A stretch of 64,000 nt of DNA. It comes from an uncultured Gammaproteobacteria bacterium. Lineage in GTDB: Bacteria > Patescibacteriota > Microgenomatia > Levybacterales > UBA12049. Location: positions 17,835 to 81,834 of the forward strand of contig CAYYSJ010000005.1 in NCBI GenBank assembly GCA_964474445.1, written 5' to 3'. Below are positions 16,316 through 33,498 of the stretch, one piece after another. A model generated the notes under the pieces. That model was given only the letters and a program-made list of their open reading frames with translations. It had not been told where the DNA came from and ran no database searches. Positions within the stretch are counted from its first letter, which is position 1. Each line of letters starts with the position of its first letter. The translations under genes and the position numbers were made by a program.

Positions 16316-18262
16316 ATGCCCGATCAAATTGTCCAATCACCAGCGGGAGTAGTACCTGTTGGTGATGTTTCTGCTACGCAAGTTCCCATTGATGGGAGTG
16401 TTCCAGGAGTTCTTCCAAGTGATCCCTCCCTTCCAGTTGTCCAAGATGCAACAGTCTCTCTTGATGCTGTTACTCCTCCAGCCCCTTCTGTAAGTACTAC
16501 GGCATCTACAGAGCCACCAGCTCTTGATTCTGTTCGCGAGTTCTATTCAGCATCTCCAGGATCACAATCTATTTTAGACATTTTGCTTGAAGAAAAATTA
16601 CTGACCCCCGCTCAGGCGGATGAAGTCAGAGTGGAAAGTGCAACACAAAATAAATCTATTGAGTCTGTCCTAGTTGATAAGCAAATTGTCACAAGTGAAA
16701 AAATTGCTGAGGCAAAAGCAAAGATGCTTGGTGTTCCGTATCTGTCACTTGCCACAGCCTCATTCTCACCTGAAGCACTGAACTTTATTCCTCGTGCTGT
16801 TGTTGAACGGTTCCAGTTAATTCCCTTCATGTATGACGATACAACGAAGACGTTATCCGTTGCAATGGCAAATCCTGTGGATCTAGAAGCACAGCAATTT
16901 GTCCGTCAGAAAACAGGCCTTACGATCAAAACCTATGCTGCATCTCCTGAAGAAGTAAAAAATGCAATTGATGTGCAATATCGTCAGGAGTTAGTTGGAG
17001 AAGTTGGGAAAGCAGTAAAAGAAACAGAAGAATTAAAGCAAGAAAATCAAGCAAAAACAATAAATGCTGACCAAATTGGACAAATTATCAAAGAAGCTCC
17101 GATTGCAAAAATTGTTGCGACAATTCTTGAGTATGCTGTTACCTCTCGAGCTTCTGATGTACATATTGAGCCGATGGAAGATAGAGTTCGTGTTCGCTAT
17201 CGTATCGATGGTATTTTATATGACAGACTTTCATTGCCAAAGACAGTACAAGAAGCAGTTATTTCTCGTATTAAAGTATTATCAGAAATGAAAATTGATG
17301 AACACCGAACTCCTCAAGATGGTCGTTTTAATTTTAAATCTGGCAATGAAGAAGTCGACCTTCGTATTTCTGTGTTACCAACAGTGAATGGTGAAAAAAT
17401 CGTTATGCGTTTGCTCAAAAAATCGGGAGGTATTCCAACATTGCCTGAATTGGGACTCGCTGGTATCTCTCTCAAAGAACTTGAGACAGCAATCTTACGA
17501 CCTCACGGTATTATTTTGGTTACTGGTCCTACGGGCTCTGGAAAAACAACAACGCTGTATGCTGTGCTATCAAAGCTTAATACCACACGGGTGAATATCG
17601 TGTCCTTGGAAGATCCTGTCGAATACCAAATTGCTGGAGTAAATCAGGTACAAATAAACCCGGCAGTCGGACTTACTTTTGCTTCAGGTCTGAGATCTTT
17701 TTTACGACAAGATCCAAATATCATTCTTGTCGGAGAAATCCGAGATGGTGAAACAGCTGATCTTGCAATTCAAGCAGCCTTGACGGGCCATTTAGTGTTC
17801 TCAACCCTCCATACCTCAGATGCCGCTGGAGCTCTTCCTCGTCTGTTGGATTTAGGAGCAGAAACATTCCTGCTTGCCTCAACCATTACTGCTGTGATGG
17901 GACAAAGAATTACCAGAAAAATTTGTGACCATTGTAAAGCACCGTACACTCCTGCACCACAACTTGTCGAAGAGATCAGAACAATTTTGGGTCCTCTGAT
18001 GCCTCCAGGTGAAGTGAAATTGTATCGAGGAAAAGGATGCAGTGAATGCGGGGATTCGGGGTATATAGGAAGAATTGGTATTTTTGAAGTGTTGACCGTT
18101 ACAGATAGTGTAGCGCATTTAGTGTTGCAGCGAGCAGATGCTGAAACAATAGAAAAGCAAGCTGTTGCAGAAGGAATGATCACCATGAAGCAAGATGGAT
18201 ATCTAAAAGCACTTGCAGGAGTGACAAGCATTGAAGAAGTATTGCGAGTTGCTCAGGAATAA
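16316..18262 (+). CDS. pilB: Type IV pilus assembly ATPase PilB (GspE family)
   Basis: N-terminal GSPII_E_N domain. Walker A VTGPTGSGKTT. C-terminal tetracysteine CDHC...CSEC. Confidence 0.9.
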   Translation: MPDQIVQSPAGVVPVGDVSATQVPIDGSVPGVLPSDPSLPVVQDATVSLDAVTPPAPSVSTTASTEPPALDSVREFYSASPGSQSILDILLEEKLLTPAQADEVRVESATQNKSIESVLVDKQIVTSEKIAEAKAKMLGVPYLSLATASFSPEALNFIPRAVVERFQLIPFMYDDTTKTLSVAMANPVDLEAQQFVRQKTGLTIKTYAASPEEVKNAIDVQYRQELVGEVGKAVKETEELKQENQAKTINADQIGQIIKEAPIAKIVATILEYAVTSRASDVHIEPMEDRVRVRYRIDGILYDRLSLPKTVQEAVISRIKVLSEMKIDEHRTPQDGRFNFKSGNEEVDLRISVLPTVNGEKIVMRLLKKSGGIPTLPELGLAGISLKELETAILRPHGIILVTGPTGSGKTTTLYAVLSKLNTTRVNIVSLEDPVEYQIAGVNQVQINPAVGLTFASGLRSFLRQDPNIILVGEIRDGETADLAIQAALTGHLVFSTLHTSDAAGALPRLLDLGAETFLLASTITAVMGQRITRKICDHCKAPYTPAPQLVEEIRTILGPLMPPGEVKLYRGKGCSECGDSGYIGRIGIFEVLTVTDSVAHLVLQRADAETIEKQAVAEGMITMKQDGYLKALAGVTSIEEVLRVAQE

Positions 18263-18316
18263 CAATTACTAGTAACTCCCGTAGAAAAACTTTACAATAA
18301 AATAAAGGGACAATAT

Positions 18317-19384
18317 ATGGATTTACAACAATTACTCGATTTAGTAGTGAAAAATAATGCATCTGACTTGCATTTGATGCCAGGTCTTCCCCCTGCAATA
18401 CGAATTGATGGAATGTTGCAATACGTCTCTTCACTCCCTTCTATGAGCAGTGAAAGTGTCCAGAGTATGATATTTACCCTTCTAAATCCTGAGCAAAAAG
18501 ACTTATTAACAGCAAACAAAGAGTTAGACTTTTCTATGCCCTATGGGGGAGGAATTTATGGACAATTAGGAAGGTTTCGTGTTAATGCATATTTTCAAAG
18601 AGGACAATTATGTGCAGCGTTTCGATTCTTGCCAAAAAGCATTAAAACAATAGAAGAGTTACGCCTTCCTCAAATTTGTCATACGTTTGCTAATCTTCGT
18701 CAAGGATTTGTTCTTGTTACCGGGCCAACAGGTCAAGGGAAATCAACAACCCTTGCATCAATGATTAATGAGATTAATATGACCAGATCTTCTCATATTT
18801 TAACGATTGAAGACCCAATTGAATATGTTTATCCAAATGGAAAAAGTATTATTTCCCAACGAGAGATGAAAACTGATACTCATTCATGGACCATGGCACT
18901 TCGTTCTGCTCTTCGTGAAGATCCTGACGTTGTGCTCATTGGAGAAATGAGAGACCCTGATACAATGCAGGCAGCAATGACCATTGCTGAGACAGGCCAC
19001 TTAGTGTTTTCAACACTTCACACAAATTCTGCTGCTCAAAGTATTGATCGTATTATTGATTCCTTTCCTGAACATCAGCAGGGACAAATTCGCACACAGC
19101 TTTCCTTTACCTTGAAAGGTATTCTTTCACAACGACTGATTCCGCAAATTAGTGGCGGGAGAATCCCAGCGGTTGAAGTATTAGTTGGAACGCCAGCTGT
19201 TGCAAGTAATATTCGGGATGGGAAAACCCATTTGATTGATTCAATCATTCAGACATCTCAAGATGTTGGTATGGTGACACTTGATTATTCGTTATCCCAA
19301 CTGGTACTTTCAGGTGCAATCAGTCTTGATACTGCAAAATCATATAGCCTGCATCCTGACGAGTTATTGAGGATGGTTGGGTAA
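18317..19384 (+). CDS. pilT: Twitching-motility/retraction ATPase PilT
   Basis: Walker A VTGPTGQGKSTT, PilT-type AIRExxDVVLIGEMRD motif. 355 aa. Confidence 0.9.
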   Translation: MDLQQLLDLVVKNNASDLHLMPGLPPAIRIDGMLQYVSSLPSMSSESVQSMIFTLLNPEQKDLLTANKELDFSMPYGGGIYGQLGRFRVNAYFQRGQLCAAFRFLPKSIKTIEELRLPQICHTFANLRQGFVLVTGPTGQGKSTTLASMINEINMTRSSHILTIEDPIEYVYPNGKSIISQREMKTDTHSWTMALRSALREDPDVVLIGEMRDPDTMQAAMTIAETGHLVFSTLHTNSAAQSIDRIIDSFPEHQQGQIRTQLSFTLKGILSQRLIPQISGGRIPAVEVLVGTPAVASNIRDGKTHLIDSIIQTSQDVGMVTLDYSLSQLVLSGAISLDTAKSYSLHPDELLRMVG

Positions 19385-19471
19385 AAGAAACATGAACCGT
19401 CAAGCATCAGCCGTTCAAGGATTTTTAGAAAAAACTATCCTCATACTCATCGGTTAAGGGTCTATGCTGTT

Positions 19472-20674
19472 ATGAAAGTACAATATCGTGCAACCACAAA
19501 AGACGGGAAAGTTGTTCAAGGAGTTTTAGAAGCAAAAGATACACAAGAAGCTGCATTTTTTCTACGTGGAAAAGAGATGCTTCCGCTGTCTCTTCGTCAA
19601 GTAGAACAAAAAGAAATACCTTTTGCTTCCCTTTTTAAAAAATCGAGTACATCTGATTTAGTCTTATTCACGAGACAATTATCATCGATCCTTTCATCAG
19701 GTCTGACACTGATGCAAGCATTAGCAATCCTCAAGGAACAAATACAAAATCCAGTGATGAGAGAAGTTGTTACTGGTATTATTGCTGATGTTCAGGAAGG
19801 AAAAACATTTGGAACTGCAATTGAAAAGTATCCAAACATTTTCAGCAAAATTTATATCGCACTTATTAAAGCTGCAGAATCTTCAGGTTTTTTGGATAAG
19901 GTATTACTCCGACTGGCTGATAATCTAGAAAAAGAACAAAAGTTAAAATCAACGATTAAATCAGCCCTCATGTATCCAATTATCGTTGTTATTTTGATGG
20001 TTGTTGTGATGTTTGTCATGATGATTTTTGTTATCCCACAACTGACTGTGTTGTATCAAAATTTAAATATTCCACTTCCCTTTACAACCCAAGTTCTTGT
20101 TACCGTTTCAAATCTTACTATTACCTTCTGGCCTATTGTTTTGGGAAGCATTGTTGCTATTGGTATTGCCTATCAACGATGGGTCAAAACTGACTCAGGA
20201 GAGTTGTTAACCGATGGATTGAAATTAAAAGTACCAGTGTTTGGCAAGCTTATTCGTCAAACAATTCTTGCTGAATTTTCTCGTACCTTTGGTCTTTTAG
20301 TTGGAGCAGGAACACTGGTTGTCCAGTCATTGAATGAGGCTGCTGATACATCCGGAAATAGGATTTATGAGAATGCGATCCAAGAAATTGCAAAACGTGT
20401 TGAGAAGGGAATTTCTATTGGAGATGCAATGGCAGCTTTTGATATCTTCCCTCCTATTCTCGTCCAAATGGTAAAAATTGGTGAACAGACTGGAAAACTA
20501 GATGAATCACTGTTAAAAGTCAGTGAATATTTTGAACGAGAAGTAGATGGGACAGTCAAGACATTAACAACAGCAATGGAACCATTTATCATGATTGTCT
20601 TAGGTGTTGGTGTTTCCTTCCTGATTATTTCTATTATTACGCCAATTTACAACCTTACCTCAAGTATTCAATAG
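19472..20674 (+). CDS. pilC: Type IV pilus inner-membrane platform protein PilC (GspF family)
   Basis: Two GspF repeats and three TM segments. 400 aa. Confidence 0.9.
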   Translation: MKVQYRATTKDGKVVQGVLEAKDTQEAAFFLRGKEMLPLSLRQVEQKEIPFASLFKKSSTSDLVLFTRQLSSILSSGLTLMQALAILKEQIQNPVMREVVTGIIADVQEGKTFGTAIEKYPNIFSKIYIALIKAAESSGFLDKVLLRLADNLEKEQKLKSTIKSALMYPIIVVILMVVVMFVMMIFVIPQLTVLYQNLNIPLPFTTQVLVTVSNLTITFWPIVLGSIVAIGIAYQRWVKTDSGELLTDGLKLKVPVFGKLIRQTILAEFSRTFGLLVGAGTLVVQSLNEAADTSGNRIYENAIQEIAKRVEKGISIGDAMAAFDIFPPILVQMVKIGEQTGKLDESLLKVSEYFEREVDGTVKTLTTAMEPFIMIVLGVGVSFLIISIITPIYNLTSSIQ

Positions 20675-21296: not shown

Positions 21297-22466
21297 ATGA
21301 GGAAGTTGTTCTTTATTGATTATGCATCACTGTTTCTGTTTTCTTTTGTTGTCACAATTACTGTGACGACATTTATCTATCCTCCCAGTAACCGTATGGA
21401 TTTTAGTATTTATCTTCTTGTTACAAAAGTTGCGCTTTTGCATAAATCGCTCTATCCATTATTTATTGACGGAGTTCTCTTTCCATATACTCACCCAACA
21501 AGTCTTACTCCATTTTTCTTTCCCTTTTTATTTCTCTCCCCTTCTCTTGCCGCAAGTGTATGGAATGCTCTTTCATTAGTGTGTTTGATTAGTGGCATCT
21601 TTTTTGTGATACGAAGTGTTCACCCGGTAAAACTTTCAACAATGCTTCTTATCCTTTCAAGTGTTCTTTTATTAGAACCTGTAAGAGAAAGTTTTCTTTT
21701 TGGTCAGAATAATTGTGTTGTATTATTGTTTGTGTTACTAGCATTTCTTTGTTCTAGGAAAAACAAATTTTCCTATCAAATCATAAGTGGTATATGTATT
21801 GGTATTGCCGCTTCTTTGAAATTATTTCCACTTTTTCTTCTTGTCTATTTTTTACTAAAAAAACAGTGGGTTAGTCTTATGGTGAGTCTTTTGATTTTTG
21901 TTTTTTTCCTACTCCTTGGAACATTTGGTCATGTTTCCTATATAGGGGAATACATGCAGTATGCGTTTGGTGTGATGGATTCTTCCCGTGTCCTCCCCGG
22001 TGATTACTCTTTATCATCATTACTATTTCTCTTTTTCCCTATGCCTTCTCTTCTGCGAATGATTTGTGTTAGTCTTTTCTCTATGCTGTTTATTGCAGTG
22101 TCTTTTTTTATTTGGAAAAAAGGAAGAAATGATGATCTGTCTGACTTTCTTTTTTTTAGTAGTATACTTGCTGTTACAATTCTTATGATCACACCACTAG
22201 CATGGGTGCATCATCTTGTCTTTCTTATTCCGTTTTGTCTGGGTCTTTTTCTCAAAGCACTCGAAACATCAGGCATACAAAGTAAGGTTATTTTTCTTGT
22301 CGCGTTTCTTCTCATATTTGTCAATTGGGAAGACTTTGTTATTTTTTTGCAAACACATGGAGCTGGATATATTCCGTTATTGTATTTTCATGCGTTATTT
22401 GGTTTGGGAGTGGTAATAATTGGAGAGCTTCTTTTACTTTCGTTTCAAAAGTTTGAAAAGAAGTAG
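21297..22466 (+). CDS. Polytopic membrane protein, probable GT-C glycosyltransferase (DUF2029/GT87-like)
   Basis: About 11 TM helices. Motifs GQNNCVVLL, GIAASLKLFPLFLL and PLAWVHHLVF resemble the DUF2029 (GT87) family. Confidence 0.4.
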   Translation: MRKLFFIDYASLFLFSFVVTITVTTFIYPPSNRMDFSIYLLVTKVALLHKSLYPLFIDGVLFPYTHPTSLTPFFFPFLFLSPSLAASVWNALSLVCLISGIFFVIRSVHPVKLSTMLLILSSVLLLEPVRESFLFGQNNCVVLLFVLLAFLCSRKNKFSYQIISGICIGIAASLKLFPLFLLVYFLLKKQWVSLMVSLLIFVFFLLLGTFGHVSYIGEYMQYAFGVMDSSRVLPGDYSLSSLLFLFFPMPSLLRMICVSLFSMLFIAVSFFIWKKGRNDDLSDFLFFSSILAVTILMITPLAWVHHLVFLIPFCLGLFLKALETSGIQSKVIFLVAFLLIFVNWEDFVIFLQTHGAGYIPLLYFHALFGLGVVIIGELLLLSFQKFEKK

Positions 22467-24689
22467 ACTTACGCTAAGTGGTGGTAAGGCAAGGAGTATC
22501 CACGCTAAATTAATCGTTATTGTTTTTTTCACTGGTGCAACATGGATTGCAGCAACAGTCGTTTTTTGTGCAGTATCAAAGGTTGTTCGCACGGTCCCTG
22601 AACCTCCTTGAGCAGTTGGTCCATTGGTGTTTTCAGTGATTGGATTTTGGTTGTTTGATGCGGTTGGTGTTGTTGCAAGTTGCGCTGGCTGCTGTGGTGC
22701 AGAACTTGGTGATGGAGATTGGGTTGGTGTTGCAATACTTTGTGTAGTTGTTTGTTGCGCATTTGTCTGTGTATTGGTATTGTTTTGTGGTGTTTGCGTA
22801 TGTTGTTTTGTCTGGCCCGGTGTCACAAAGTCGCCTACCCATTTCCCAAATACATTAACAACAGTAACAAACAGCTTGCCCTTTCCAACAATATTGTCAT
22901 TAACAAAGTTAACAATGTTCGCAAGAATTTTTGCATCCCCTGTTTGAACAGTGACATTTCCTCCGGTATTTTCATTTGCAATATTGCCACCAGTATTGGC
23001 AGAAAGAGTAAGTTTGTTGCCAACTGTACCTGTATTTTTTTGTTGTGTTGTTGTTTGGGAATTTTGCGTTGTTTGTGCGTTATTAGTACTCCCTGCTCCA
23101 TTTCCATTATTACTTGCACTTACATTTCCATTTGCATCACTCGTAATCGTAAGACCATTTGATGCAACAGTAGATCCACTGGGTGCCCCGATCAGCTGAC
23201 CAATCCACTGCCCTGCTTTGTTAACAAGGACAAGCCATAAGTTACCGTCTGAAATATTGGAGTTTGCGATATTCAACACATGTGAATCCGCGGACGCTTG
23301 TCCACTATTTACCGTTGTTGTACCACCCGTATTTCGTGTGGCATCATTTCCTCCTGTTGTACTAGTCGTTTGCAGATTGTTGTCGATGACAGCGTCATTT
23401 GTTTGAGAAAGAAGATTATGTGACATCTGATTTGCAACCGAAGTATTGCTACTGCCTGCTCCGTTTCCTGCATTACTTAAGGATGTATTTGTGTTGTTGC
23501 AGCCATTTGTGCAGGGATTAAACGAATCCAACACGCTTTGTGGCAGGATGATATCTCCCTGTAAGTTTCCATAAATATTCACAACACCGTAGACAACATT
23601 TCCTGAAGCGATATTATTGTTCAAAAATGTTAATGAGTTTGCGGATACATTGGCATTGCCTGTTTGAATCCCTGTATTTCCTCCCGTATTCTTGTTTGAG
23701 AGATTGTCTCCAGAATTTGCCGTGAGAACTAAATTATTTCCAACACTTCCATCATTGGTTTGTGTGAGGGAGGATTGAGACGTTTTGTTTGCTTGAGAAG
23801 TGTTAGTACTCCCTGCCCCATTGCCGATATTTTTCACTATTTCTCCTGGAACTGTTGTTGAACATCCACTAATACAATGTGCTCCAAAATCCAAGACAAG
23901 ATCACCAGTATGGTTGTCTGCAATATTGAATTCTGCAACTGCTACACCATCAACGTTCGTGTTTTGCGCGGTAATGATTGTTCCGGAAACATTTGCATCG
24001 CCTGTTTTGGTTGCTGTATCTCCAACATTTTCAGAAGCATTGTTTTTGCCTGTGACAGATGCTTGTGAAAGTGTTTGGGCAGAACTTGCAGTATTTGTTT
24101 GGACAGCACTCGTTGTATTGTTTGTTGATGTCGATGTTGCATTGGTAGATTGTGCTCCGTTTCCTGCATTTGTTGCATTTGATGATGATGGTGTTGGTGA
24201 GGCATCATGTGTTGTTCCAATTCCTGATGGGGACGTCGCTCCATTATTGTTTCCAGTTGTTGTACTGGTATTTTGTGGATTTGCGTTACCTGTTGTCACG
24301 GCGTTTGTCCCTGCTGGTGCAGAAGTTGGTGTGGGAGATGTAGAAACTGTTGGATCCCAATGAGGATCATTTTGCTGTGGATTCCCTCCAGAATTTACAC
24401 TTGGACTTTGTGTAGGGGTAGAAGTAGTTGGGGTATGTTCGTGAGGAGGATTGTTTGTAGTATTGTTCGTGTTACTTGTAGAGGTTTGTTGTTGCGGTGA
24501 TGGTGTTTGAGAAGTGGAAGGTACAGATGGAGCTGCTGGGGCGCTTGGTGCTGTTGGAGCACTGGGTGGTGTTTGTATCGTTGCTGCATGGATAGGAAGC
24601 GTGTTAAAAAGAATCATGCAGAGAATCAGTATGCCTGTGAAGAATTTTTTTAGACTGATTTCTCTATATTGTTTTATTTTATGTTTCAT
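22434..24689 (-). CDS. Secreted/surface Asn-Thr-Gly-rich tandem-repeat protein (751 aa) with a C-terminal hydrophobic anchor
   Basis: N-terminal signal peptide. Pro/Ser/Thr-rich linker. Three approximately 100-aa repeats (GNGAGS.N...NTGGN..V.TG.A...). C-terminus LAWILLALPPLSVSLLLFKLLKRK (TM plus basic tail). Confidence 0.6.
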   Translation of the reverse strand: MKHKIKQYREISLKKFFTGILILCMILFNTLPIHAATIQTPPSAPTAPSAPAAPSVPSTSQTPSPQQQTSTSNTNNTTNNPPHEHTPTTSTPTQSPSVNSGGNPQQNDPHWDPTVSTSPTPTSAPAGTNAVTTGNANPQNTSTTTGNNNGATSPSGIGTTHDASPTPSSSNATNAGNGAQSTNATSTSTNNTTSAVQTNTASSAQTLSQASVTGKNNASENVGDTATKTGDANVSGTIITAQNTNVDGVAVAEFNIADNHTGDLVLDFGAHCISGCSTTVPGEIVKNIGNGAGSTNTSQANKTSQSSLTQTNDGSVGNNLVLTANSGDNLSNKNTGGNTGIQTGNANVSANSLTFLNNNIASGNVVYGVVNIYGNLQGDIILPQSVLDSFNPCTNGCNNTNTSLSNAGNGAGSSNTSVANQMSHNLLSQTNDAVIDNNLQTTSTTGGNDATRNTGGTTTVNSGQASADSHVLNIANSNISDGNLWLVLVNKAGQWIGQLIGAPSGSTVASNGLTITSDANGNVSASNNGNGAGSTNNAQTTQNSQTTTQQKNTGTVGNKLTLSANTGGNIANENTGGNVTVQTGDAKILANIVNFVNDNIVGKGKLFVTVVNVFGKWVGDFVTPGQTKQHTQTPQNNTNTQTNAQQTTTQSIATPTQSPSPSSAPQQPAQLATTPTASNNQNPITENTNGPTAQGGSGTVRTTFDTAQKTTVAAIHVAPVKKTITINLAWILLALPPLSVSLLLFKLLKRK

Positions 24690-24785
24690 AGTTCTTTATT
24701 ATTGTTTCTTCTTTTTTTGTTGCTTTCGTCTTCCTGTAGGGTTTGGAGAGAAGTGCTTCTCCAAGATCCCTACAGAAAGAACTAG

Positions 24786-26024
24786 TTATAGATGCATAGA
24801 TCCAAGAGCATTACCCATATCAAAGGTAAAATTGAGATCTGTTCCTCCTGGAAGCTGCAATCCACCTGGCCCAAAGGTATTTACATTAGCATTGTTTCGT
24901 ACCGTTGTATCACTCCCTGAATGTCCAGTCACGACGTCGACTGGATCACCTCGGAATAGATTTCCTGTATTTCTGTTTGCATTGTTTTTACCGGTACTTC
25001 CTTTGCTGGTAACATCGTTTGATATCGCTGCGTTTCCATCTTGGAAGGCAGAAAGTTCGTCTGTCGAACGATGGGTAATATTGTTCTCAGATTGTGCTCC
25101 GTTTCCAGAGATTCTTCCAAAGACACCATCATCTCGAAGACATCCACAGTTACCTAAGTCTGCACTATTAAAGTTTGCTAATGTTCTGACACCAGTGCGG
25201 TTGGTTGCATTGCCTGTATCAACAGTAACGTTGCCATCGGTATTTTCATTTGCGTTATTTTTTCCTGTTGTTGCATCTGCATGAACTTTATTGCGAACAT
25301 CGGCTTGGTTGTCTTGTACCAAACTGACGGAGTTGTTACGGTTGAGATCTATCTGATTAGAAGACTCTGCACCGTTTCCATGGATACGCAATTCAGCTCC
25401 TGTACCATTTCCATTTCCTCCATCATTTCCCATTCTTGCCACATTGGCGTTCACTGCTGTACTCAGCGCTGTGTCATTGGCTGCATGTCCTGTAAGGACT
25501 GACACATCTCCTCCTGTATTCCTATCTGCATTGTTGTGACCTGTCCTTGCGTTTGCAGTGACATCATTCGTCACGTTTGCTTCATTGTTTTGGAAAAGAG
25601 ATGTATTACGGGTTGTGTCAACAGAAGCATTATTGTTGGAATTAAAACCATTACCAGAAAGGGTAACGGTTGATTGTCCATCTCCGTTGCAGTTACAGTT
25701 TCCTACATCTGCAACATTTGCATTTGCTCGTGTTCTAACATCAGTCGTGTTACGAGCATTTCCTGTATCAATACTGACATTCCCTCCCGTATTTTCATTT
25801 GCTCTATTTCCTCCTGTTGTTGCATCTGAATGGACGTTATTGGAAATGTCTGCGTTATTGTCTTGGACAACTGTTGTCTTTTTGTTGGAAGTGGTATCTA
25901 CAGAATTATTCGATTCTGCTCCATTTCCGTTGATGCGTAATGTGGAATCTGCGAATACCATTGGCGTTAATGCATTAAGTAAAAGAGTTCCACTTGCGAA
26001 CATCGTCAGTAATTGTTTTTGCAT
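24786..26024 (-). CDS. Secreted Asn-Thr-Gly-rich tandem-repeat protein (412 aa), paralogous repeat type to the upstream gene
   Basis: Signal peptide. About 3.5 approximately 100-aa repeats (NGNGAES.N...TTG.N.ANENTGGNV..DTGNA...) with conserved CNC/CGC pairs. Confidence 0.6.
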   Translation of the reverse strand: MQKQLLTMFASGTLLLNALTPMVFADSTLRINGNGAESNNSVDTTSNKKTTVVQDNNADISNNVHSDATTGGNRANENTGGNVSIDTGNARNTTDVRTRANANVADVGNCNCNGDGQSTVTLSGNGFNSNNNASVDTTRNTSLFQNNEANVTNDVTANARTGHNNADRNTGGDVSVLTGHAANDTALSTAVNANVARMGNDGGNGNGTGAELRIHGNGAESSNQIDLNRNNSVSLVQDNQADVRNKVHADATTGKNNANENTDGNVTVDTGNATNRTGVRTLANFNSADLGNCGCLRDDGVFGRISGNGAQSENNITHRSTDELSAFQDGNAAISNDVTSKGSTGKNNANRNTGNLFRGDPVDVVTGHSGSDTTVRNNANVNTFGPGGLQLPGGTDLNFTFDMGNALGSMHL

Positions 26025-26189
26025 ATATTCTGTTCACCCCCTTTCCTTTCAAAGATCCTGTTTTTCTCAGGCGCACTTCAGCGCAAACTGTAGAGAGTAG
26101 CTCTTAAGGAGAAGTTAATAAGCAGTAAGACTTGGGTAATAACAAAGATGAAGTGACAAAAACAATTATGAATGGTCAAAGAACAGATG

Positions 26190-26795
26190 TTATTTTTTCA
26201 GAGGAATATTAATGACTGTTTTTTGTCCATTGATTTCTCCAACATGCAGCTTCACGTCTTTTATTGTGTCATTCACTGGTAAACCAATTCGTGTATATTT
26301 TGTTGAAATTGGTTGGATGGTAACAGGATCATTGTGAATTTCTGGAGCCAACAACTCTGGATGATTATCAAGACTAATTCGGATAAAATCGCGACTATTC
26401 AGTTGCATACTTTGTGTACTTGGATTACCAATTTTTAAATTGAGGATAAGAAATGTTCTTCCTGCAACTGCGTCTGCTTTTTGTCCTTGCAAAATAATTT
26501 GATCTTGTAAATCCAGAGATTGAATAGTATAGGTAACTTGCGTAATGACGTCTCCCTTATCATCTCTCACAGGAAATGAGAAATCTTTATTAATCGTTTT
26601 AGAATAATAGGGTTTGGCAACACTGATTTTTGTAGGAGACTTTTTCGCTGTTTGATTCCCGACAACATATGCAGCGATAATAAGAAGAACAACAAGGAGG
26701 ATTTTTCCTCCTGTCCATACTGTTCTTTTTGCAATCACTCCTTTCTTGGAAGAAGTTGTTGTGGGTTGATAGATAGCAAGTGGACTGATATGCAT
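26190..26795 (-). CDS. Membrane-anchored DUF4352-like (Ig-like) protein
   Basis: Single N-terminal TM, then a beta-rich domain (FLILNLKIGNPS...). Confidence 0.35.
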   Translation of the reverse strand: MHISPLAIYQPTTTSSKKGVIAKRTVWTGGKILLVVLLIIAAYVVGNQTAKKSPTKISVAKPYYSKTINKDFSFPVRDDKGDVITQVTYTIQSLDLQDQIILQGQKADAVAGRTFLILNLKIGNPSTQSMQLNSRDFIRISLDNHPELLAPEIHNDPVTIQPISTKYTRIGLPVNDTIKDVKLHVGEINGQKTVINIPLKK

Positions 26796-26798
26796 AGA

Positions 26799-27224
26799 TT
26801 AGTCACAGAGTGCATGGATAAAAATTGTTGTCGATGTTTCCTTTGCACCTTTGCCAATAATAATGGAAAGTTGTTGATGATTTTTTTCTCCAACAAGCAT
26901 GTTTGATGATGTTCCGTTCGTGTTGTCGACAATATCGGTTACAATGGAAAATTGTTCCTGTTGTAGCTTTTCTTTATACCATTCCACAACATGCAATGGT
27001 TCGTCTGTTGTTTCTAAACGCACATATTCTTGTTGATTGTCTTTTACTATTGTTTTGGGGTAAAAAAATGCTGAAGGACAGGGTTTTTGTAGTGGCAGTT
27101 GGGATATTTTTGTTTGTGTTTTAGTGTTTGCAAGGGTAAGTTGTTGCTGTTTATTCCACGACGAGACATATACTTGAAAAAGAATTACTGCAATAAGAAA
27201 AAAAAGAGGCCAATATTTTTTCAT
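26799..27224 (-). CDS. Small membrane-anchored hypothetical protein
   Basis: N-terminal TM helix and ORF adjacency. Confidence 0.3.
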   Translation of the reverse strand: MKKYWPLFFLIAVILFQVYVSSWNKQQQLTLANTKTQTKISQLPLQKPCPSAFFYPKTIVKDNQQEYVRLETTDEPLHVVEWYKEKLQQEQFSIVTDIVDNTNGTSSNMLVGEKNHQQLSIIIGKGAKETSTTIFIHALCD

Positions 27225-27301
27225 ACAAAGCAGTCAGGCAACATCATAAAAATACCTATTATGAAACTTTGTTGAATTGTGTAAGACTTACGTAACAAGG
27301 A

Positions 27302-28891
27302 CTATGTTTTCGGAATACGAAATGAAAACGTAGAACCTTTGCCTGGTGTACTTGCCACAGACATATCTCCTCCATGGGCTTTCACAATTTGTGATGAGAT
27401 ATACAGGCCAAGGCCAAGTCCCTGCGTAAATTGTGTTTGTTTTTGCTCTCCTCGATAAAACCGTTCAAAAATCTTTCTAGCAACATCTTTTGACATCCCT
27501 ATGCCAAAATCGGTGACGTGAATCAACATATCTTTTCTTCTATTCTCGAGTGTTACCAGAATACGTGTTGCCTCAGGAGAATATTTAATTGCGTTATTGA
27601 GGAGATTAATCAGGACTTCTTCTATTTTTCTTTTATCTATCATGATTGATGTTTTAATGGTACCCTTTTTGATAATGCGATGTTGTTTTTCAGAAGACTG
27701 TATTGTTTCGATAATCTCTTGAACAAGTTGATTGATATCAACTTGTTCTTTGTTCAGTATGACTGATCCTTTTTGAATTTGTGAGACATCAAGGAGTGTT
27801 GTGATCAAATCAAAAAGTCTCTGCAATTGGTTTGATGCTTTTTTTAGATAATTTTGTGCATCCTTGTCTGGATGCGTTTGATAATATTTTTGCAATAATT
27901 GTAAATACAAAGCGGTACTGGAAACTGGATTTTTTAGTTCATGAGCAGCAATACTAATAAAATCTTCTTTTTCTTGTTCTTGACGTTTTACGTCTGTTGT
28001 GTCTCGAAAAAGTTTAATAAATCCATAGAATTGATTATTACTTGTCCAGAGTGGAGTAGTAAATCCACTTGAGAAAAACCGTGACCCATTTTTCTTTTGT
28101 AACTGATTTTCATCTGTTGATTTTCCATAACGAAGAGCTTTCACAAACTCTTTTTCTGGTATATTTTTTTCTTTATCCTCTTGTGTATACAAAATTGAAA
28201 TAAATTTACTCTGAAGCTCTCCTCTCTTATATCCAGTAAGACGATAGACACCTTCATTTGCATCAGTAATATATCCCCTTTTATTAAAGAAAATAATGCC
28301 GTAATCTGTTGTATTTTCAAGAAGAAGTTGAAATGAGAGTTTTATTGATTCTGCTTGTGTCGTTGCATTTTTTAGATTAGCAATGAAATAACTTACCACG
28401 ATACCCTCAATACCATAGAGAAGAAGAACAACGACGTTTCTTATCGGATGTATGGCAAAACTCCAAAATGGAGGAACAGCAATATATGAGACAACAAATA
28501 TTCCTAAAAGCGTTGCGAGAAGACCAGAATACAACCCTGCTAACCAACTGCTAAAAATAACTGGGAATAAAAAAAGAAACAATTGTACATTGGAAAAAAC
28601 CTGGGAAAACTGGATTTTTATAATAAGCACAACAAGGACAGTGATAATAGGAAATCCAAACCCTCTCACCCAAGAAGAAATGACTTCCTGCATCTCTTGT
28701 TGAGGAGTTTTCTCAGGCTCATGGTTTCGAAATTCTCTGATAACTGCCTTAATGATATTTTCCTTCTGTATTTGTTTCAATGAAGGAATTCGTGGAGGCA
28801 TATAGTATTGGTTTTCTGTGTCTACTATCTGTGGTATCAGTAAAAATTTATAGAGAAATTCGTAAGAATGTTTCAAGATTACAGATAACAA
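27302..28891 (-). CDS. Membrane sensor histidine kinase (TM - PAS - HisKA - HATPase_c); an alternative start at 28801 is possible
   Basis: H-box ISIAAHELKNPVSS. N, G1 and G2 boxes (NLLNNAIKYS, DFGIGM, GLGLGLYIS). Four N-terminal TM helices. No adjacent response regulator. Confidence 0.8.
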   Translation of the reverse strand: MLSVILKHSYEFLYKFLLIPQIVDTENQYYMPPRIPSLKQIQKENIIKAVIREFRNHEPEKTPQQEMQEVISSWVRGFGFPIITVLVVLIIKIQFSQVFSNVQLFLFLFPVIFSSWLAGLYSGLLATLLGIFVVSYIAVPPFWSFAIHPIRNVVVLLLYGIEGIVVSYFIANLKNATTQAESIKLSFQLLLENTTDYGIIFFNKRGYITDANEGVYRLTGYKRGELQSKFISILYTQEDKEKNIPEKEFVKALRYGKSTDENQLQKKNGSRFFSSGFTTPLWTSNNQFYGFIKLFRDTTDVKRQEQEKEDFISIAAHELKNPVSSTALYLQLLQKYYQTHPDKDAQNYLKKASNQLQRLFDLITTLLDVSQIQKGSVILNKEQVDINQLVQEIIETIQSSEKQHRIIKKGTIKTSIMIDKRKIEEVLINLLNNAIKYSPEATRILVTLENRRKDMLIHVTDFGIGMSKDVARKIFERFYRGEQKQTQFTQGLGLGLYISSQIVKAHGGDMSVASTPGKGSTFSFRIPKT

Positions 28892-28938
28892 TACCTATTG
28901 ACAAGGTTAAAATTAGTGTGCTTAACTTAAACTGTAGG

Positions 28939-29481
28939 ATGAAAAAACTGTCCAACCTCATTCGATGTTTTTCAATAAAACCTCAAGCTGGATTTACTCT
29001 TATCGAACTGCTTGTTGTTATTGGTATTTTAGGTGTGTTAGCAGCTGCACTGGTCGCAACAATTGATCCTTTTGAGCAGTTGAAAAAGGCAAATGATGCC
29101 AATATAAAAAATACTGCAGTTGAATTTATTAACGCGAATATTCGTTACTATACAACCCACAATCAAATGCCATGGATCGCTAATTGTTTGGGTGCTGGAG
29201 CAACTGCTCCATCTGGAAATCCATTATATCCTAACCTGACTGGTTGTTTAGTAAGCTTGGTTGGAGATGGAGAAATTAAAAGTGCCTTTACGACGGTAAC
29301 TGGCGTCTTAAGTAGTATTACCATTACCGGGGATGCGAACTCGGTGACTGCATGTTTCTTACCACAATCAAAAGCGCAACGAGCAGATGGGAATACGAGA
29401 TGGAATAATACTGGTTCTGCTACAATAGCACCAGCAAGCTGTGGACCTACCTCAACGCTTTGTTACTGGTGTTCACAGTAA
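28939..29481 (+). CDS. Type IV (major) pilin with a class III signal peptide
   Basis: Prepilin cleavage motif KPQAG/FTLIELLVVIGILGVLAAAL after the internal ATG at 28939. C-terminal Cys pair. Confidence 0.8.
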   Translation: MKKLSNLIRCFSIKPQAGFTLIELLVVIGILGVLAAALVATIDPFEQLKKANDANIKNTAVEFINANIRYYTTHNQMPWIANCLGAGATAPSGNPLYPNLTGCLVSLVGDGEIKSAFTTVTGVLSSITITGDANSVTACFLPQSKAQRADGNTRWNNTGSATIAPASCGPTSTLCYWCSQ

Positions 29482-31508
29482 CAAACCTCATGATAAAAAA
29501 ACACATACAAGCATCCATACTTATTGTTGTCGTTTTTATTCTGTATCTACACAACCTTTCTCGTAGTGTGTATGGTGGAGATGTTGGAGATTTAGTCACT
29601 GCTGCTTCTCTTATGGGTGTTGCCCATCCTCCTGGTTACCCTCTCTTTACTTTCCTCGGATTCTTGTTAACACGTTTGACATTCCTGCACCTTCCTCAGG
29701 CATTTTTAGTAGGACTGATTTCTGTTTTTTCGGCAGTGATAGGTGTCGGAGCTTTTTACGCTTTGACTTTCCAGTTGTCAAAAAATAGACTCTCCTCTCT
29801 TCTTGCAACTGCTATTCTTTCGTTCTCTTTTCTCTATTGGTTCTATGCTGAAATTGCAGAAGTATTTGCGCTCAACAGCATGTTTGCCATTTTGTTACTC
29901 CTTGTTGCACTCCTTTTCCGAAAAAAACCAACATTATCTCTCTTAGGAATCTTCTCCTTTCTCCTTGGCCTTTCCATTACAAATCATCAAACAATTATTC
30001 TTCTCTTTCCATCCCTAGCTCTTCTTACTGTCAAACCAGTGTGGCATATGGTGAAAACAGCAAAAAAAGCAATTGGAATTGTTTGTATAGGCGTACTCAT
30101 AGGTATGTTGCCCTATAGCTATATCCCCTTTGCAGCATCGCACCACCCGATTGTGAATTGGGATAATGTTCATGATCTTCGTTCATTCTTGCATCTTGTC
30201 TTACGACAGGATTATGGAACATTTCAGGCAGGTATTTTTGAAAAGCCGACCTTGTTACAACGACTTGTTACACTCAAGGTATATAGTCTTTATCTTATCT
30301 CACAAGTAACAATTCCCGTTGTTTTGGTAAGTTTTCTAGGATTTGTGACACTTTGGAAAAAGGAGAGAATAGTCAGTATTGCACTGTTTCTTGCATTTCT
30401 TCTTTCAGGACCAGTGTTTATCGCATATGCAGGATTTCCGTTAACAGGTAGTTTTATTTTAGGGGTGTATGAACGCTTTTTCCTCCTCTCATCCATTGTG
30501 CTTCTTATCCCCTTTTCTGTAGGAATTCTATGGATTGCGACGCGTCTGAGTTCAATTCTTTCAAGAAAAATCTATATCTCTGTTTTCCAGCTCGTTTTTT
30601 TCCTTATTCCACTGGCACTGTTGCTGTATAACTTTCCCAAAACAGATCTTTCATCAGTCATGGTTGGAGATACCTATGCAGAAGATCTTCTCAATTCTCT
30701 CCCTCAAAACTCTTTGCTGGTATTTAGCGGAGATACCCTTGTTTTTAACACATGGTATGTCCACTATGTACGACATGTCAGACCAGATATTACGCTGTAT
30801 AATTTTGGAGGTGAAGTGCAGAATGCCTCTTCACGTCTTACCCCAATACAGAGAGTGGAAAATAAATTGAATACATTGGTTGCAACGTTGATAGAGAATG
30901 CAAAAGAACGTCCTGTTTTCTCTTCAGTGCTTTTAGAACCAACAAACGATAGGAAAAAAATAACCTGGATTCCTTATGGATTGGTATACAAATTGAGTTC
31001 TTCATCAGACGGCCTTCCTGGAAAAGATGCCTATGTCCCAGACCAAAAACGTTTATGGTCTATGTTTCATCTTCCAACCCAGGAGGAGATGAAAAAAAAT
31101 GTCTTTCATAATTTAACGATTGCAGCATTCCCAACTGCTTTCTCTGATGCTGCTCTGACGACAGGAACATTTATCTATACCAAGTATGCTGACAGTGAGG
31201 ATGCCATGTCATATTATCAAAAAGCCCTTGCCTTAGATCCTGGTAATGCGAAAGCGTACGAAACACTTGGAGCATATTATGTTGGTGTAAGTGGAAAATG
31301 TTCTGAGGTTGTTGGTAATTTGAGCAAATCTCTTTATTTGAATCCGTTTGAAAAGCTTCCGTATTTTCTGTTATATGCAACGTATAAAGATTGTTATCAC
31401 AGAATGGATATTGCGAAAAAAATTGCATTGCAATTTAATACAGTCTTTCAGCAGGATTTTACAAAAGAAATGAAAAATCAAGTTTCTGCAACACTTTTCT
31501 CTCAGTAG
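29460..31508 (+). CDS. GT-C fold membrane protein of the DUF2723/TMEM260 family with a C-terminal TPR domain (putative protein O-glycosyltransferase)
   Basis: N-terminal GGDVGDLVTAASLMGVAHPPGYPLF motif, which is the DUF2723 hallmark. At least 10 TM helices. C-terminal TPR-like YYQKALALDPGNAKAYETLGAYY. Confidence 0.55.
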   Translation: MLLVFTVTNLMIKKHIQASILIVVVFILYLHNLSRSVYGGDVGDLVTAASLMGVAHPPGYPLFTFLGFLLTRLTFLHLPQAFLVGLISVFSAVIGVGAFYALTFQLSKNRLSSLLATAILSFSFLYWFYAEIAEVFALNSMFAILLLLVALLFRKKPTLSLLGIFSFLLGLSITNHQTIILLFPSLALLTVKPVWHMVKTAKKAIGIVCIGVLIGMLPYSYIPFAASHHPIVNWDNVHDLRSFLHLVLRQDYGTFQAGIFEKPTLLQRLVTLKVYSLYLISQVTIPVVLVSFLGFVTLWKKERIVSIALFLAFLLSGPVFIAYAGFPLTGSFILGVYERFFLLSSIVLLIPFSVGILWIATRLSSILSRKIYISVFQLVFFLIPLALLLYNFPKTDLSSVMVGDTYAEDLLNSLPQNSLLVFSGDTLVFNTWYVHYVRHVRPDITLYNFGGEVQNASSRLTPIQRVENKLNTLVATLIENAKERPVFSSVLLEPTNDRKKITWIPYGLVYKLSSSSDGLPGKDAYVPDQKRLWSMFHLPTQEEMKKNVFHNLTIAAFPTAFSDAALTTGTFIYTKYADSEDAMSYYQKALALDPGNAKAYETLGAYYVGVSGKCSEVVGNLSKSLYLNPFEKLPYFLLYATYKDCYHRMDIAKKIALQFNTVFQQDFTKEMKNQVSATLFSQ

Positions 31509-31549
31509 TTTTGCTTGTTTGCATGCTTTTCTCATAGTATACTGAAACC

Positions 31550-32710
31550 ATGAAAATAGACTGGCATATTGTTGGTATGATCGCATTTGTGAAAATATGT
31601 ATTTTCTCATTACTGTTTCTTTCTTTTGAGTTTTTTCCTTTTAATACTGTCTATTATTTCTCAAACTTTATCTATCCAAAAGGAGAGGCTATTTCATTAA
31701 AAACTGCGTACAAAACATGGGATGCTCAGCACTTCTTATTTTTGAGTGAAAAAGGATATCATGCAAAAAATGATTCAAATGCCTTTCCTCCTTTGTATCC
31801 ACTTGCTATATTTTTACTCACGACTCTCACAAAAAATAGCTTTGTGTCTGGCTTAATTATTTCCAATCTTTGCTCTCTGGTTGGCTTCTATCTGTTCTAT
31901 GAGCTTGTCTCTCTTTGGTTTACAAAAAAAATTGCGTATACAAGTCTTCTTCTTTTACTCTCATTTCCAACAAGTTTTTTCTTCTCACTGATTTATTCTG
32001 AATCACTATTCTTTTTGTGCCTTATGCTGTTTTTCTCGTTTCTAACAAAGAAACAGATCGGTTTTGCTGCTCTCATGGCTCTTCTTCTTCCGACAATCCG
32101 TTTAGTTGGAGTTGCTATTGTGCTTCCTTTTGTCAGCTGGTATGTGTTTGACATGCGCAAGTTGACTCTTTTTGATGAGGTAAAAAATATTGCAGAAAAC
32201 ATGCTGAGAAAAGAGGCACTCCTTCTCCTCTCTCCCCTACTTGGTTTTGGAGTTGTCCTGCTTTGTATGTTTTTGTTTACAGGAAATGCATTTGCACCAT
32301 TTGATGCGTTGCAACAATATGTTTCTCATCACTCGGTACTTTCCTTGTTTAATCTCTTCTCTTTTCTTGGAGTATTCTTCCATTTCCCCCTTGCTTTACA
32401 TGGGTATACAAATTCTATTTTTGATAGAGTGTTCTTTCTCGGATTCGTACTGCTTAGTGTACTCATGATACGAAGAGTATCGATAACGCTTCTTCTCTTT
32501 AGTATTGCCTTTGGGGTACTTCCCGTTTTGAGTGGAAGTTTCATGTCATATATGCGCTACGTTGCTGTTATCTTTCCTCTCTATATTGTCTTAGCACAAC
32601 TTGTAGAAGAAAAAAAATATCAAGCTTTCAAATTTCCTTTGTTATTTTTCTTTATTCTCTTGCAAACGCTATTTGTTATTATGCATAGTATAAATTATTG
32701 GGTTGCGTAA
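31550..32710 (+). CDS. PIG-V/GT76-like (Mannosyl_trans2) polytopic membrane glycosyltransferase
   Basis: WDAQHFLFLSEKGY...NAFPPLYPL resembles the PIG-V mannosyltransferase motif. Multi-TM. Confidence 0.45.
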   Translation: MKIDWHIVGMIAFVKICIFSLLFLSFEFFPFNTVYYFSNFIYPKGEAISLKTAYKTWDAQHFLFLSEKGYHAKNDSNAFPPLYPLAIFLLTTLTKNSFVSGLIISNLCSLVGFYLFYELVSLWFTKKIAYTSLLLLLSFPTSFFFSLIYSESLFFLCLMLFFSFLTKKQIGFAALMALLLPTIRLVGVAIVLPFVSWYVFDMRKLTLFDEVKNIAENMLRKEALLLLSPLLGFGVVLLCMFLFTGNAFAPFDALQQYVSHHSVLSLFNLFSFLGVFFHFPLALHGYTNSIFDRVFFLGFVLLSVLMIRRVSITLLLFSIAFGVLPVLSGSFMSYMRYVAVIFPLYIVLAQLVEEKKYQAFKFPLLFFFILLQTLFVIMHSINYWVA

Positions 32711-33498
32711 GCATGCTTGCTGTTATGATATATTTTTTTGTATTTATTGTTGGACTGTGTGTTGGTTCTTTTTTGAATGTTGTTATTGATAGAATCCCTC
32801 ACCATAGATCTATTGTGAAAGGAAGATCAGAGTGTGATTTTTGTCACCATACTCTTGCCTGGTATGATCTTATTCCTGTTTTCTCATTTGTCTTTCTCAG
32901 AGGTGCATGCAGATATTGCAAACACACGTTGTCACTTCAGTACCCGATTGTTGAAATACTTACCGGAGTATTATTTCTTGTGTCATACGTCTTACTACTA
33001 GGAAGTCCAGGTGTTTTTGCATTGGGAAAGTCGTTTCTTCTTTTGAGTCTTTTTGCAACATTTTTTGCTCTTTCTGTAATGGATATAAAATATGGAATAT
33101 TATCTGACACGTTAATCCTCTTTTCGGTAGGACTAACAGTTGGACTGTTGTTATTTTCTCCTGCGCTTTTTTTTGCACATCTTTTGGTTGGATTTGTGTG
33201 TTTGGGCGTATTATTGCTTCTTTTTCTTGTGACGAAAGGTCGAGGAATTGGGCTTGGTGATGTCAAACTAAGTTTTGTGATGGGACTATTGCTTGGATTC
33301 CCCTCAATTGTCGTTGCGTTCTATATAGCTTTCTTGACAGGTGCTTGTATTGCAATCATACTAATAGTAGCAAAGAAAAAAAAGCTGGTTGGAGGGACAA
33401 TAGCATTTGGTCCTTTCTTGCTTCTTGGGACATATATCAGCTGGTATTTTGGTAGCAGCGTATGGATGTTTTTTCTGCACATACTCGGCATTCTTTAG
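32698..33498 (+). CDS. pilD: Prepilin peptidase PilD (A24 family)
   Basis: N-terminal CxxC...CxxC zinc-binding region (CDFC...CRYC). Eight TM helices. Asp-containing peptidase motifs. Confidence 0.85.
   Translation: MGCVSMLAVMIYFFVFIVGLCVGSFLNVVIDRIPHHRSIVKGRSECDFCHHTLAWYDLIPVFSFVFLRGACRYCKHTLSLQYPIVEILTGVLFLVSYVLLLGSPGVFALGKSFLLLSLFATFFALSVMDIKYGILSDTLILFSVGLTVGLLLFSPALFFAHLLVGFVCLGVLLLLFLVTKGRGIGLGDVKLSFVMGLLLGFPSIVVAFYIAFLTGACIAIILIVAKKKKLVGGTIAFGPFLLLGTYISWYFGSSVWMFFLHILGIL

Follow-up and report, generated by a model that had tools for sequence, protein, structure and literature searches.

What do two neighbouring genes for repeat-rich secreted proteins build for the cell, and do they belong to the type IV pilus genes among which they lie? 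The genes, A (22434-24689, minus strand, 751 amino acids (aa)) and B (24786-26024, minus strand, 412 aa), were taken from the list of open reading frames (ORFs) of a 64-kb stretch of Microgenomates DNA that was analysed as a whole and that we refer to as the window. An earlier note on this DNA had described their products as paralogous secreted or surface proteins and had linked them to the pilus. The first of these claims appears sound. Both ORFs are present, they have signal-peptide-like N termini, and their products align by BLASTP with E = 2.5e-43 and ~30% identity, several of the alignments being shifted by at least one repeat unit. A hidden Markov model (HMM) of the B family also matches A in four separate stretches. 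The pilus link does not hold (see below). Judged from sequence and gene order, the pair forms the centre of an uncharacterised cell-envelope cassette that is conserved across the Microgenomates.

This conclusion comes from 81 related loci (78 from species-representative genomes, found with a 16-sequence profile, and three others), which we searched with the genes of the window. Their neighbourhoods, ~20 kb per genome, total 1.41 Mb. A B-type gene is present in all 81 loci and an A-type gene in 74, and near the pair we identified a 201-aa ORF (cl1) in 76 loci and, by tblastn, a 141-aa ORF (cl3) in 27. When the neighbouring genes were clustered de novo, cl1 adjoined the B-type gene in 78/82 loci and cl3 was located directly upstream of cl1 in 41/82. 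The genes follow a conserved order on one strand: cl3 (~150 aa), cl1 (~208 aa), sometimes a gene for a DUF2292 protein, the B-type gene and the A-type gene. Based on this order, the cassette of the window spans 27224 to 22434. About 40 loci also hold a third paralogue (~385 aa) and a sortase (Pfam E = 1.7e-21). The earlier note had overlooked the four-gene cassette extending to 27224, together with the NLAW signature at the C terminus of A, the LPxTG-bearing third paralogue and sortase of the relatives, and a structured RNA between B and A.

The first cassette gene, cl3 (26799-27224, minus strand), is predicted to encode an N-terminal hydrophobic anchor followed by a small extracytoplasmic domain with an invariant W-Y pair; it has no match in Pfam, NCBIfam or PDB, including a profile comparison with PDB. 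The second, cl1 (26190-26795, minus strand), encodes an N-terminal transmembrane (TM) anchor and a DUF4352-like beta-sandwich domain. Nine of 45 members match Pfam DUF4352 (PF11611; best E = 3.8e-5), the conserved core reads ...APDIHNDPV..STK.TR.GF..., and the cl1 profile found no match in PDB. There are at least 203 cl1 homologues, all unnamed and all from Microgenomates.

The A and B families are large and tightly conserved. At least 341 B-type homologues (~400-440 aa) and at least 291 A-type homologues (~700-800 aa) were found. None has a name other than "hypothetical", and where a source is given it is one of the Microgenomates candidate phyla (Levy-, Davies-, Gottesman-, Woese- and related ones). 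An exhaustive HMMER search identified the repeat in 3227 representative clusters, 1061 of them at E <= 1e-30. Full-length homologues are 40-60% identical, and A-type proteins share only ~40% identity with one another. Neither A nor B has a match in Pfam or NCBIfam at E <= 1, and the B-family profile has none among PDB sequences at E <= 10. Known S-layer or SLH anchoring domains were likewise not matched in either protein (Pfam, NCBIfam and PDB sequences), and in the literature on surface proteins, sortase and S-layers of the candidate phyla radiation (CPR) we found nothing on this repeat family. The earlier note could not place the repeat in a named family, and we agree: the A/B repeat domain is new, with no Pfam model and no PDB fold match.

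The family comprises four paralogue classes, each with a fixed number of repeats: A (four repeats, NLAW-TM tail), B (four, no anchor), C (three, LPxTG) and D (two, ~200 aa, no anchor). Because classes A, B and C differ in their anchor, one fold would exist in free, membrane-tethered and wall-linked versions.

Several features of the relatives were seen along the way. The DUF2292 gene (83 aa) lies between cl1 and the B-type gene in 30 loci (e.g., L005:5422-5673, plus strand) and is not in the window. Many relatives carry a second set of surface-protein genes just downstream of the cassette on the opposite strand, for instance L038:3484-4518, L078:17864-18670 and L073:17385-18092 (all minus strand). 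This set begins with a two-repeat (~200 aa) family member. The proteins after it have signal peptides of the SipW-type/camelysin (TasA-like) kind, and one of these proteins carries RTX calcium-binding repeats; the set is missing from the window. Many cassette contigs are titled "uncultured Gammaproteobacteria bacterium" (L004, L011, L012 and others), and single ones Methylomirabilota or Saccharimonadales. These names resemble placeholders or errors of binning, and we drew no taxonomic evidence from them.

Repeats, termini and predicted fold

The earlier note described a repeat of about 100 residues in 3-3.5 copies per protein. The skeleton that it recognised (GNG...Q.N.A...TG.N.A..NTGG...TG.A) is invariant among 54 homologues, but the copy number is four, not 3-3.5, because a single-repeat HMM finds four units in each protein. 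In B the HMM matches residues 29-110, 121-201, 212-293 and 304-389, with a period of ~91 aa. As annotated, the repeats of B cover residues 29-112, 121-203, 212-295 and 304-389, which correspond to 25689-25940, 25416-25664, 25140-25391 and 24858-25115 on the minus strand. In A the matches are to residues 175-254, 289-366, 407-483 and 528-613. The period there is ~113-121 aa, and each unit contains an extra hydrophobic hairpin. The 54 B-type sequences share ~38 invariant columns (GNG, Q.N, N, G.N, N..G, N.N), which fall at equivalent positions of the four repeats. The Cys pairs noted earlier in the smaller protein are present as CNC (110-112) and CGC (293-295), that is, as CxC after repeats 1 and 3, and A has Cx3C pairs (CISGC, CTNGC).

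The repeats are not repeats at the DNA level. Tandem Repeats Finder detected no long-period DNA repeat at A/B, and slippage-type variation was rejected on this ground. Repeat-number variation, which the earlier note proposed to look for, is not supported, the number being fixed in each paralogue class.

Both proteins are compositionally biased, B being rich in Asn (18%), Gly (12%) and Thr (11%) and A in Thr (16%), Asn (14%) and Ser (10.5%). Antisense ORFs occur across the pair, and one antisense frame of B has just three stops in 1239 nt. Because of this scarcity of stops we regard the antisense ORFs as compositional by-products. The earlier note had also called them spurious, although one of its examples, 22624-23162, merges two ORFs in different frames.

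The N termini of A and B resemble Sec signal peptides, with a basic start, a hydrophobic core and AFA/IHA before the mature part. This assignment was made by eye and from the family consensus (M..KK...AIATGA.LLN..P.AFA, then.TT.ISGNG). In B the signal-peptide-like part would comprise residues 1-25 (ending ...PMVFA before DS); the C-terminal tail has a conserved LP.G...F.FD...L pattern and B has no anchor. The public annotation of B (P0001, 405 aa) begins at Met8. The upstream ATG at 26024 fits the family N terminus better and is preceded by a strong Shine-Dalgarno-like site.

Protein A is longer and more composite. A putative signal peptide (residues ~1-36, 24582-24689) is followed by a Pro/Ser/Thr-rich segment (37-172, 24174-24581), four ~115-aa repeats (173-640, 22770-24173), a Thr/Gln/Pro-rich spacer (641-724, 22518-22769) and a C-terminal anchor (725-751, 22437-22517), all on the minus strand. 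The two segments flanking the repeats are both Pro/Ser/Thr-rich and correspond to the stalk that the earlier note had seen. The C terminus reads ...TINLAWILLALPPLSVSLLLFKLLKRK, and the anchor, TINLAWILLALPPLSVSLLLFKLLKRK, is an instance of the NLAW signature described below.

We modelled B with AlphaFold2 from a 54-sequence alignment (mean predicted local distance difference test (pLDDT) 66, predicted template-modelling score 0.62) and residues 165-650 of A from 64 sequences (mean pLDDT 69, predicted template-modelling score 0.66, 151 residues at pLDDT >= 90). Repeat cores reach pLDDT 85-95 in the models. Both models are all-beta, and each repeat is predicted to consist of a short strand, the GNG turn, a ~31-residue strand, the TG.N.A..NTGG loop and return strands, with isolated bridges at equivalent positions of this loop in every repeat. 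Foldseek searches of PDB with both models returned nothing at E <= 0.001, with all template-modelling scores <= 0.24, and the viral BFVD library likewise gave nothing significant. For both models the top two or three of these weak hits include the bacterial functional amyloids CsgA (8c50) and FapC (9u4u, 9nqd), with beta-helix proteins next.

Coevolution was analysed by mean-field direct coupling analysis of 311 B-type proteins (effective number of sequences 283). Among the top 200 pairs, 149 join equivalent positions across repeats (77 in adjacent repeats, 63 between repeats n and n+2, and 9 between n and n+3) and 38 lie within a repeat. The intra-repeat pairs recur in each repeat. Some of them align the long strand with the return strand as an antiparallel ladder in which residue sizes compensate (I-A against V-L); further pairs indicate a beta1/beta2 contact and a contact of the GNG loop with the NTGG loop. 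At the inter-repeat ladder 77/168/260/351, the residue quadruplets are DDDD (59), DRDR (43), RRRR (31), FFFF (21) and ERER (9), the last being that of the window. Repeats are 0.55 identical within a protein versus 0.44 between different-index repeats across proteins, and synonymous codons at identical residues are shared at 0.499 versus an expected 0.449 (n = 17393). Because synonymous codons are barely homogenised, recent gene conversion does not explain the ladders, and gene conversion as their sole cause was rejected given this near-random codon sharing. The charge alternation (DRDR/ERER) was downgraded as proof of stacking, since XYXY patterns without complementarity (DVDV, STST) are frequent too.

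The coupling between repeats is most simply read as selection on equivalent positions that lie close in space because the four repeats stack in register, though this reading is not proven. The models, the coevolution without codon homogenisation and the weak curli/FapC fold matches together suggest stacked solenoid-like repeats. The beta-solenoid-type architecture put forward in the earlier note is therefore plausible from the all-beta models and the coevolution, while the Foldseek matches are non-significant.

Ribosome-binding site and RNA hairpin

The B gene is preceded by a strong Shine-Dalgarno-like site, AAAGGGGGUGA (26034-26046, minus strand), 9-21 nt upstream of the start at 26024. Across the neighbourhoods, the duplex of B-type genes with the anti-Shine-Dalgarno sequence has a median energy of -10.6 kcal/mol, whereas A-type genes, cl1 and 957 other genes have medians of -0.6, -0.7 and -1.8 kcal/mol, respectively. 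All these figures are approximate because the comparison used longest-ORF starts and a generic anti-Shine-Dalgarno sequence. The difference is pronounced both between B and A (p = 2e-12) and between B and the other genes (p = 9e-20). Most other neighbourhood genes have no recognisable Shine-Dalgarno site, and only 11% of the 957 reach <= -6 kcal/mol; it is against this weak background that the B-type genes stand out.

Directly 3' of the B stop codon, the window encodes an RNA hairpin (24723-24784, minus strand) with a stem of ~20-23 bp and the loop AGCACUUC. Its predicted folding energy is -30 kcal/mol (z = -5.9). A hairpin is found at the same position in 61/61 relatives tested (median -30 kcal/mol, median z -6.2); the loop, (A/U)GCACUUC, is nearly invariant and the stems differ. 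A covariance model of the hairpin, run over both strands of the 1.41 Mb, matched the post-B position only, once per locus, including 11 loci that were not used for training. Covariation is well above background: the score over 23 pairs is 0.427 versus 0.195 +/- 0.010 in shuffled alignments (0/500 reach the observed value) and 0.09-0.18 in slid controls, and double changes occur in 22/23 pairs.

No match to Rfam 15 was found in 22000-27600 at E <= 1. Promoter and terminator scans gave nothing above chance, and the minus strand of the B-A interval showed no canonical terminator. The hairpin has no U-tract and, because its 3' flank is A-rich, is not a canonical intrinsic terminator. A UUCG tetraloop was considered for the loop and rejected, as the G is not conserved. 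We infer that the hairpin stabilises the 3' end of the mRNA, is a site of processing or terminates transcription in part, and that expression of B is thereby kept apart from, or above, that of A. The invariance of the loop suggests that it may have a binding partner, and the element could represent a new motif, cis-regulatory or for processing, that belongs to the B-type gene.

What the cassette may build

How would these parts work together? We propose that B, as an abundant surface subunit, assembles with itself and is tethered by A, and that the cassette builds a proteinaceous surface layer or fibre coat. On the sequence data and models presented above, we give this proposal about an even chance. 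B would be made in large amounts and exported via Sec. Stacked in register, its four repeats would form a flat all-beta body of solenoid-like build, with open edges and with ladders of Asn/Gln/Gly, and B would then self-associate and dock on the homologous repeat body of A. The C-terminal helix of A would keep this protein in the cytoplasmic membrane, and its Thr/Pro/Gln-rich linkers would be long enough to span the wall. In other lineages the LPxTG paralogue, fixed by sortase to the peptidoglycan, would take the same role from there. The hairpin and the weak start site of A would set the amount of B far above that of A, and the small membrane proteins cl3 and cl1 would be assembly or anchoring partners. 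B is thus presumably the major secreted subunit and A probably a membrane-tethered paralogue that anchors or nucleates it, and the outcome would be a proteinaceous layer or coat. The surface layer that the earlier note offered as one of two possibilities stays a live reading. High expression of B is indicated, indirectly, by a Shine-Dalgarno site far stronger than those of its neighbours and by the stable, conserved 3' hairpin.

Several points weigh against this proposal. Polymerisation and the contact between A and B are deduced solely from paralogy and the predicted fold. Overall confidence of the models is moderate (mean pLDDT 66-69), and the stacking topology is derived indirectly; the Foldseek matches to CsgA and FapC, with E from 0.015 to 0.96 and template-modelling scores given as <= 0.11, are far from significant and serve as leads only. 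The strong n/n+2 couplings and the many non-complementary XYXY patterns could stem from an old duplication or conversion of a two-repeat block and not from contact, and like-charge ladders (DDDD, KKKK) are awkward for tight stacking. The energies behind the Shine-Dalgarno argument are, as mentioned, approximate. Finally, no LPxTG paralogue, further family member, sortase or DUF2292 gene was found in the 64-kb window, and its closest relatives (L002, L004) are also without the LPxTG paralogue and sortase at this site.

The strongest competitor, which we consider possible but clearly less probable, is that A and B are non-polymerising surface proteins, each of them monomeric, that serve as host-attachment adhesins or bind glycans, minerals or cations. 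B would then be released or loosely associated with the wall, and A displayed on its stalk. Asn/Thr-rich beta proteins with repeats, stalks and anchors are typical adhesins, the weak fold matches include PfbA, SRRP and autotransporter beta-helices, and the Asp-rich ladder positions (DDDD at several sites) could bind cations; the episymbiotic lifestyle fits as well. However, adhesins usually vary in length and sequence, and here length, repeat number and at least 38 invariant residues are fixed across many candidate phyla. The exceptional ribosome-binding site of B and its 3' hairpin point to a bulk structural protein. Mutual association of the paralogues is also suggested by the fact that a single fold comes without an anchor, with a membrane anchor and with a wall anchor.

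A second alternative concerns the C terminus of A. The hydrophobic segment and basic tail, without LPXTG or PEP, were already recognised in the earlier note and are confirmed. The tail follows the signature K-K-K-[VI]-x-[IV]-N-L-A-W-(L)5-P-(~8 hydrophobic)-[RK]3, present in 57/67 A-type proteins, and conservation in these tails is 100% for N, L and A, 98% for W and 92% for P(+9). NLAW abuts the hydrophobic stretch, which after W is 14 residues long in nearly all A-type tails. The layout (signature, hydrophobic stretch, basic cluster) is tripartite as in LPXTG/sortase and PEP-CTERM signals, and such strict conservation of three residues in ~40%-identical proteins suggests recognition by a partner. 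The tail could therefore be read as a cleaved sorting signal for a processing enzyme that leaves A covalently on lipid or wall.

This reading of the tail seems improbable, however. No NCBIfam or Pfam anchor or sorting-signal model matches it, and no exosortase-, archaeosortase- or rhombosortase-like gene is present in the conserved neighbourhoods (~20 kb per genome examined), so a cognate enzyme is not in evidence there. Sorting systems usually serve several cargoes, whereas the NLAW signature occurs on A-type proteins only, in the 1.41 Mb of neighbourhoods and in the window. The sortase found beside the cassette of relatives has an obvious other substrate, the C-type paralogue next to it, which ends in LP[AVIT]TG, a hydrophobic stretch and RLRSGRSP, a textbook sortase signal. 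The search for the tail and for sortase- or exosortase-like genes in relatives, suggested earlier, thus yielded a conserved tail and a sortase for a different protein. The cytoplasmic tails past the helix also vary in length, from 5-21 residues to ~40 residues with a second hydrophobic segment in four proteins (L042, L047, L052 and L073), and this second helix argues against a simple cleaved sorting signal. Retention by the helix itself is the anchoring that we assume for A in the surface-layer proposal.

The position of the pair in the window raised the third alternative, in which the type IV pilus encoded around A and B would carry them as accessory adhesins or at its tip. The pair does lie between pilB/pilT/pilC (16316-20674) and a block (27302-39596) that contains a histidine kinase gene and, from 28780 onward, genes for pilin, prepilin peptidase, pilin-like proteins, a PilX-like protein, PilM and a weakly PilN-like protein, and CPR cells attach to hosts via pili (PMC7906910). 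As conserved linkage this position fails: PilB/T/C genes were found near the pair in 2/81 loci and a pilin gene in 1/81, and the conserved neighbours are cl1, cl3 and, elsewhere, sortase. The cassette is on the strand opposite to the pilus genes, and the N termini of A and B are of Sec type, with no match to the N_methyl prepilin motif in Pfam. The pilus-adhesin interpretation of the earlier note is largely refuted by synteny, the linkage being peculiar to this genome, and we consider it very unlikely.

The pilus region has features of its own. Six consecutive pilin-like genes with N_methyl motifs (33462-37086, plus strand) follow the prepilin peptidase (32698-33498), and after them come the PilX-like gene, PilM and the weak PilN-like gene, an unusually rich minor-pilin set. 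Three GT-C-type glycosyltransferases flank the cassette and the pilin genes: GT87 (21297-22466), a TMEM260-like protein with TPR (29460-31508) and a PIG-V/PMT_2-like protein (31550-32710), all on the plus strand. Possible targets of O-glycosylation by these enzymes are the pilins and the Ser/Thr-rich segments of A. Other genomes do not conserve them beside the cassette, GT87 being near the pair in 1/81 loci. The 3' ends of the GT87 gene and of gene A are convergent and overlap by 33 nt (22434-22466).

That the ORFs are low-complexity artefacts or fast-evolving, strain-variable contingency proteins without a conserved role, as biased composition and the many overlapping antisense ORFs might suggest, can be set aside with near certainty, this idea being refuted by hundreds of full-length homologues (40-60% identity) that share invariant columns and keep the gene order, by the lack of a DNA-level tandem repeat and by the confidently modelled repeat cores.

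Comparison with known surface systems

The proposed division of labour between a secreted subunit and an anchored paralogue has counterparts elsewhere. The curli of Enterobacteria are also encoded by adjacent paralogous genes, with a free major subunit (CsgA) and a cell-associated one (CsgB) that templates or anchors it. Imperfect internal repeats in which Asn, Gln, Gly, Ser and Ala abound and Q/N positions are invariant are common to both systems, and a stacking of the repeats as rungs is proposed for both. CsgA (8c50) is in the top two Foldseek matches of both our models, although this similarity is non-significant. In contrast to curli, A and B have no Curlin_rpt (PF07012) match in Pfam, and hhalign of the B-family profile with E. 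coli CsgA gave a probability of 0.3%. The repeats are 91-120 aa here versus ~22 aa in curli. The host is a monoderm without CsgG/E/F-type genes, the conserved neighbours are cl3, cl1, DUF2292 and sortase, and the anchored paralogue uses a C-terminal helix.

FapC of Pseudomonas, a functional amyloid, is likewise a secreted protein with a small number of long, imperfect repeats; Asn, Gly, Ala, Thr and Ser are frequent in them, and Cys motifs are conserved. Its structures 9nqd and 9u4u are top-ranked among the weak Foldseek matches, which are non-significant (E 0.045-0.41, template-modelling score <= 0.24). No fap operon genes accompany the cassette, and host type and anchoring differ.

The chaplins of Streptomyces form a self-assembling surface layer on a monoderm cell and comprise long ChpA-C with a sortase signal and short, secreted ChpD-H. 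Like them, the present family consists of secreted paralogues that share one domain, with unanchored and LPXTG-type members beside a sortase (in relatives, not in the window). The window, however, holds only the unanchored and the helix-anchored member; there is no chaplin domain (PF03777) match in Pfam, the repeat is far larger, and the hydrophobic coating function of chaplins has no parallel here.

In the Sulfolobales, adjacent genes encode SlaA, an unanchored outer canopy, and SlaB, a stalk protein with a C-terminal TM helix and a Ser/Thr-rich region. The arrangement of B and A is similar: an adjacent pair with one unanchored product and one held by a C-terminal TM helix next to a Ser/Thr-rich region. 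Unlike B and A, SlaA and SlaB are not paralogues and their folds differ, and there is no sequence or fold match between the systems. By analogy, the logic of a secreted subunit with an anchored paralogue would be shared with curli, chaplins and SlaA/SlaB, while none of the defining sequence features of those families was found in A or B.

Within the CPR, ultrasmall groundwater cells that are likely members were shown by cryogenic transmission electron microscopy to lack an outer membrane and to bear a surface layer with periodicities of 3.8 and 10 nm (PMC7906910). Sortase is near-ubiquitous in Microgenomates, and the protein families enriched there are mostly hypothetical (PMC6744442). A bolder version of our proposal, which we offer as speculation with a rather low probability, is that B, A and, in other lineages, the LPxTG paralogue form a hitherto unrecognised kind of bacterial surface polymer. 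It would consist of four-rung beta-solenoid subunits with giant rungs (~90-120 residues), joined edge to edge and nucleated on the anchored paralogues, and would be the periodic layer of the ultrasmall groundwater cells. Its stoichiometry would be set by the hairpin with its factor-binding loop, and in NLAW-TM the cassette would have a signal for anchoring or sorting of a new kind. Strands of 31 residues would measure ~10 nm and eight rungs ~3.8 nm, the periodicities of PMC7906910; we regard this as a coincidence and not as evidence.

As far as sequence comparison goes, three features of the locus are new, namely the A/B repeat, the NLAW anchor and the RNA hairpin. Much of bacterial diversity belongs to the CPR, whose members live attached to other cells and whose envelope proteins are essentially uncharacterised. 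The strong translation signal, the hairpin at the mRNA end and the membrane- and wall-anchored paralogues are what a bulk surface structure would be expected to show, and the cassette offers testable candidates for a CPR surface layer, for a new C-terminal anchoring signature and for a new cis-acting RNA motif. The B gene and its hairpin would be simple markers with which to find and quantify this system in metatranscriptomes and metaproteomes.

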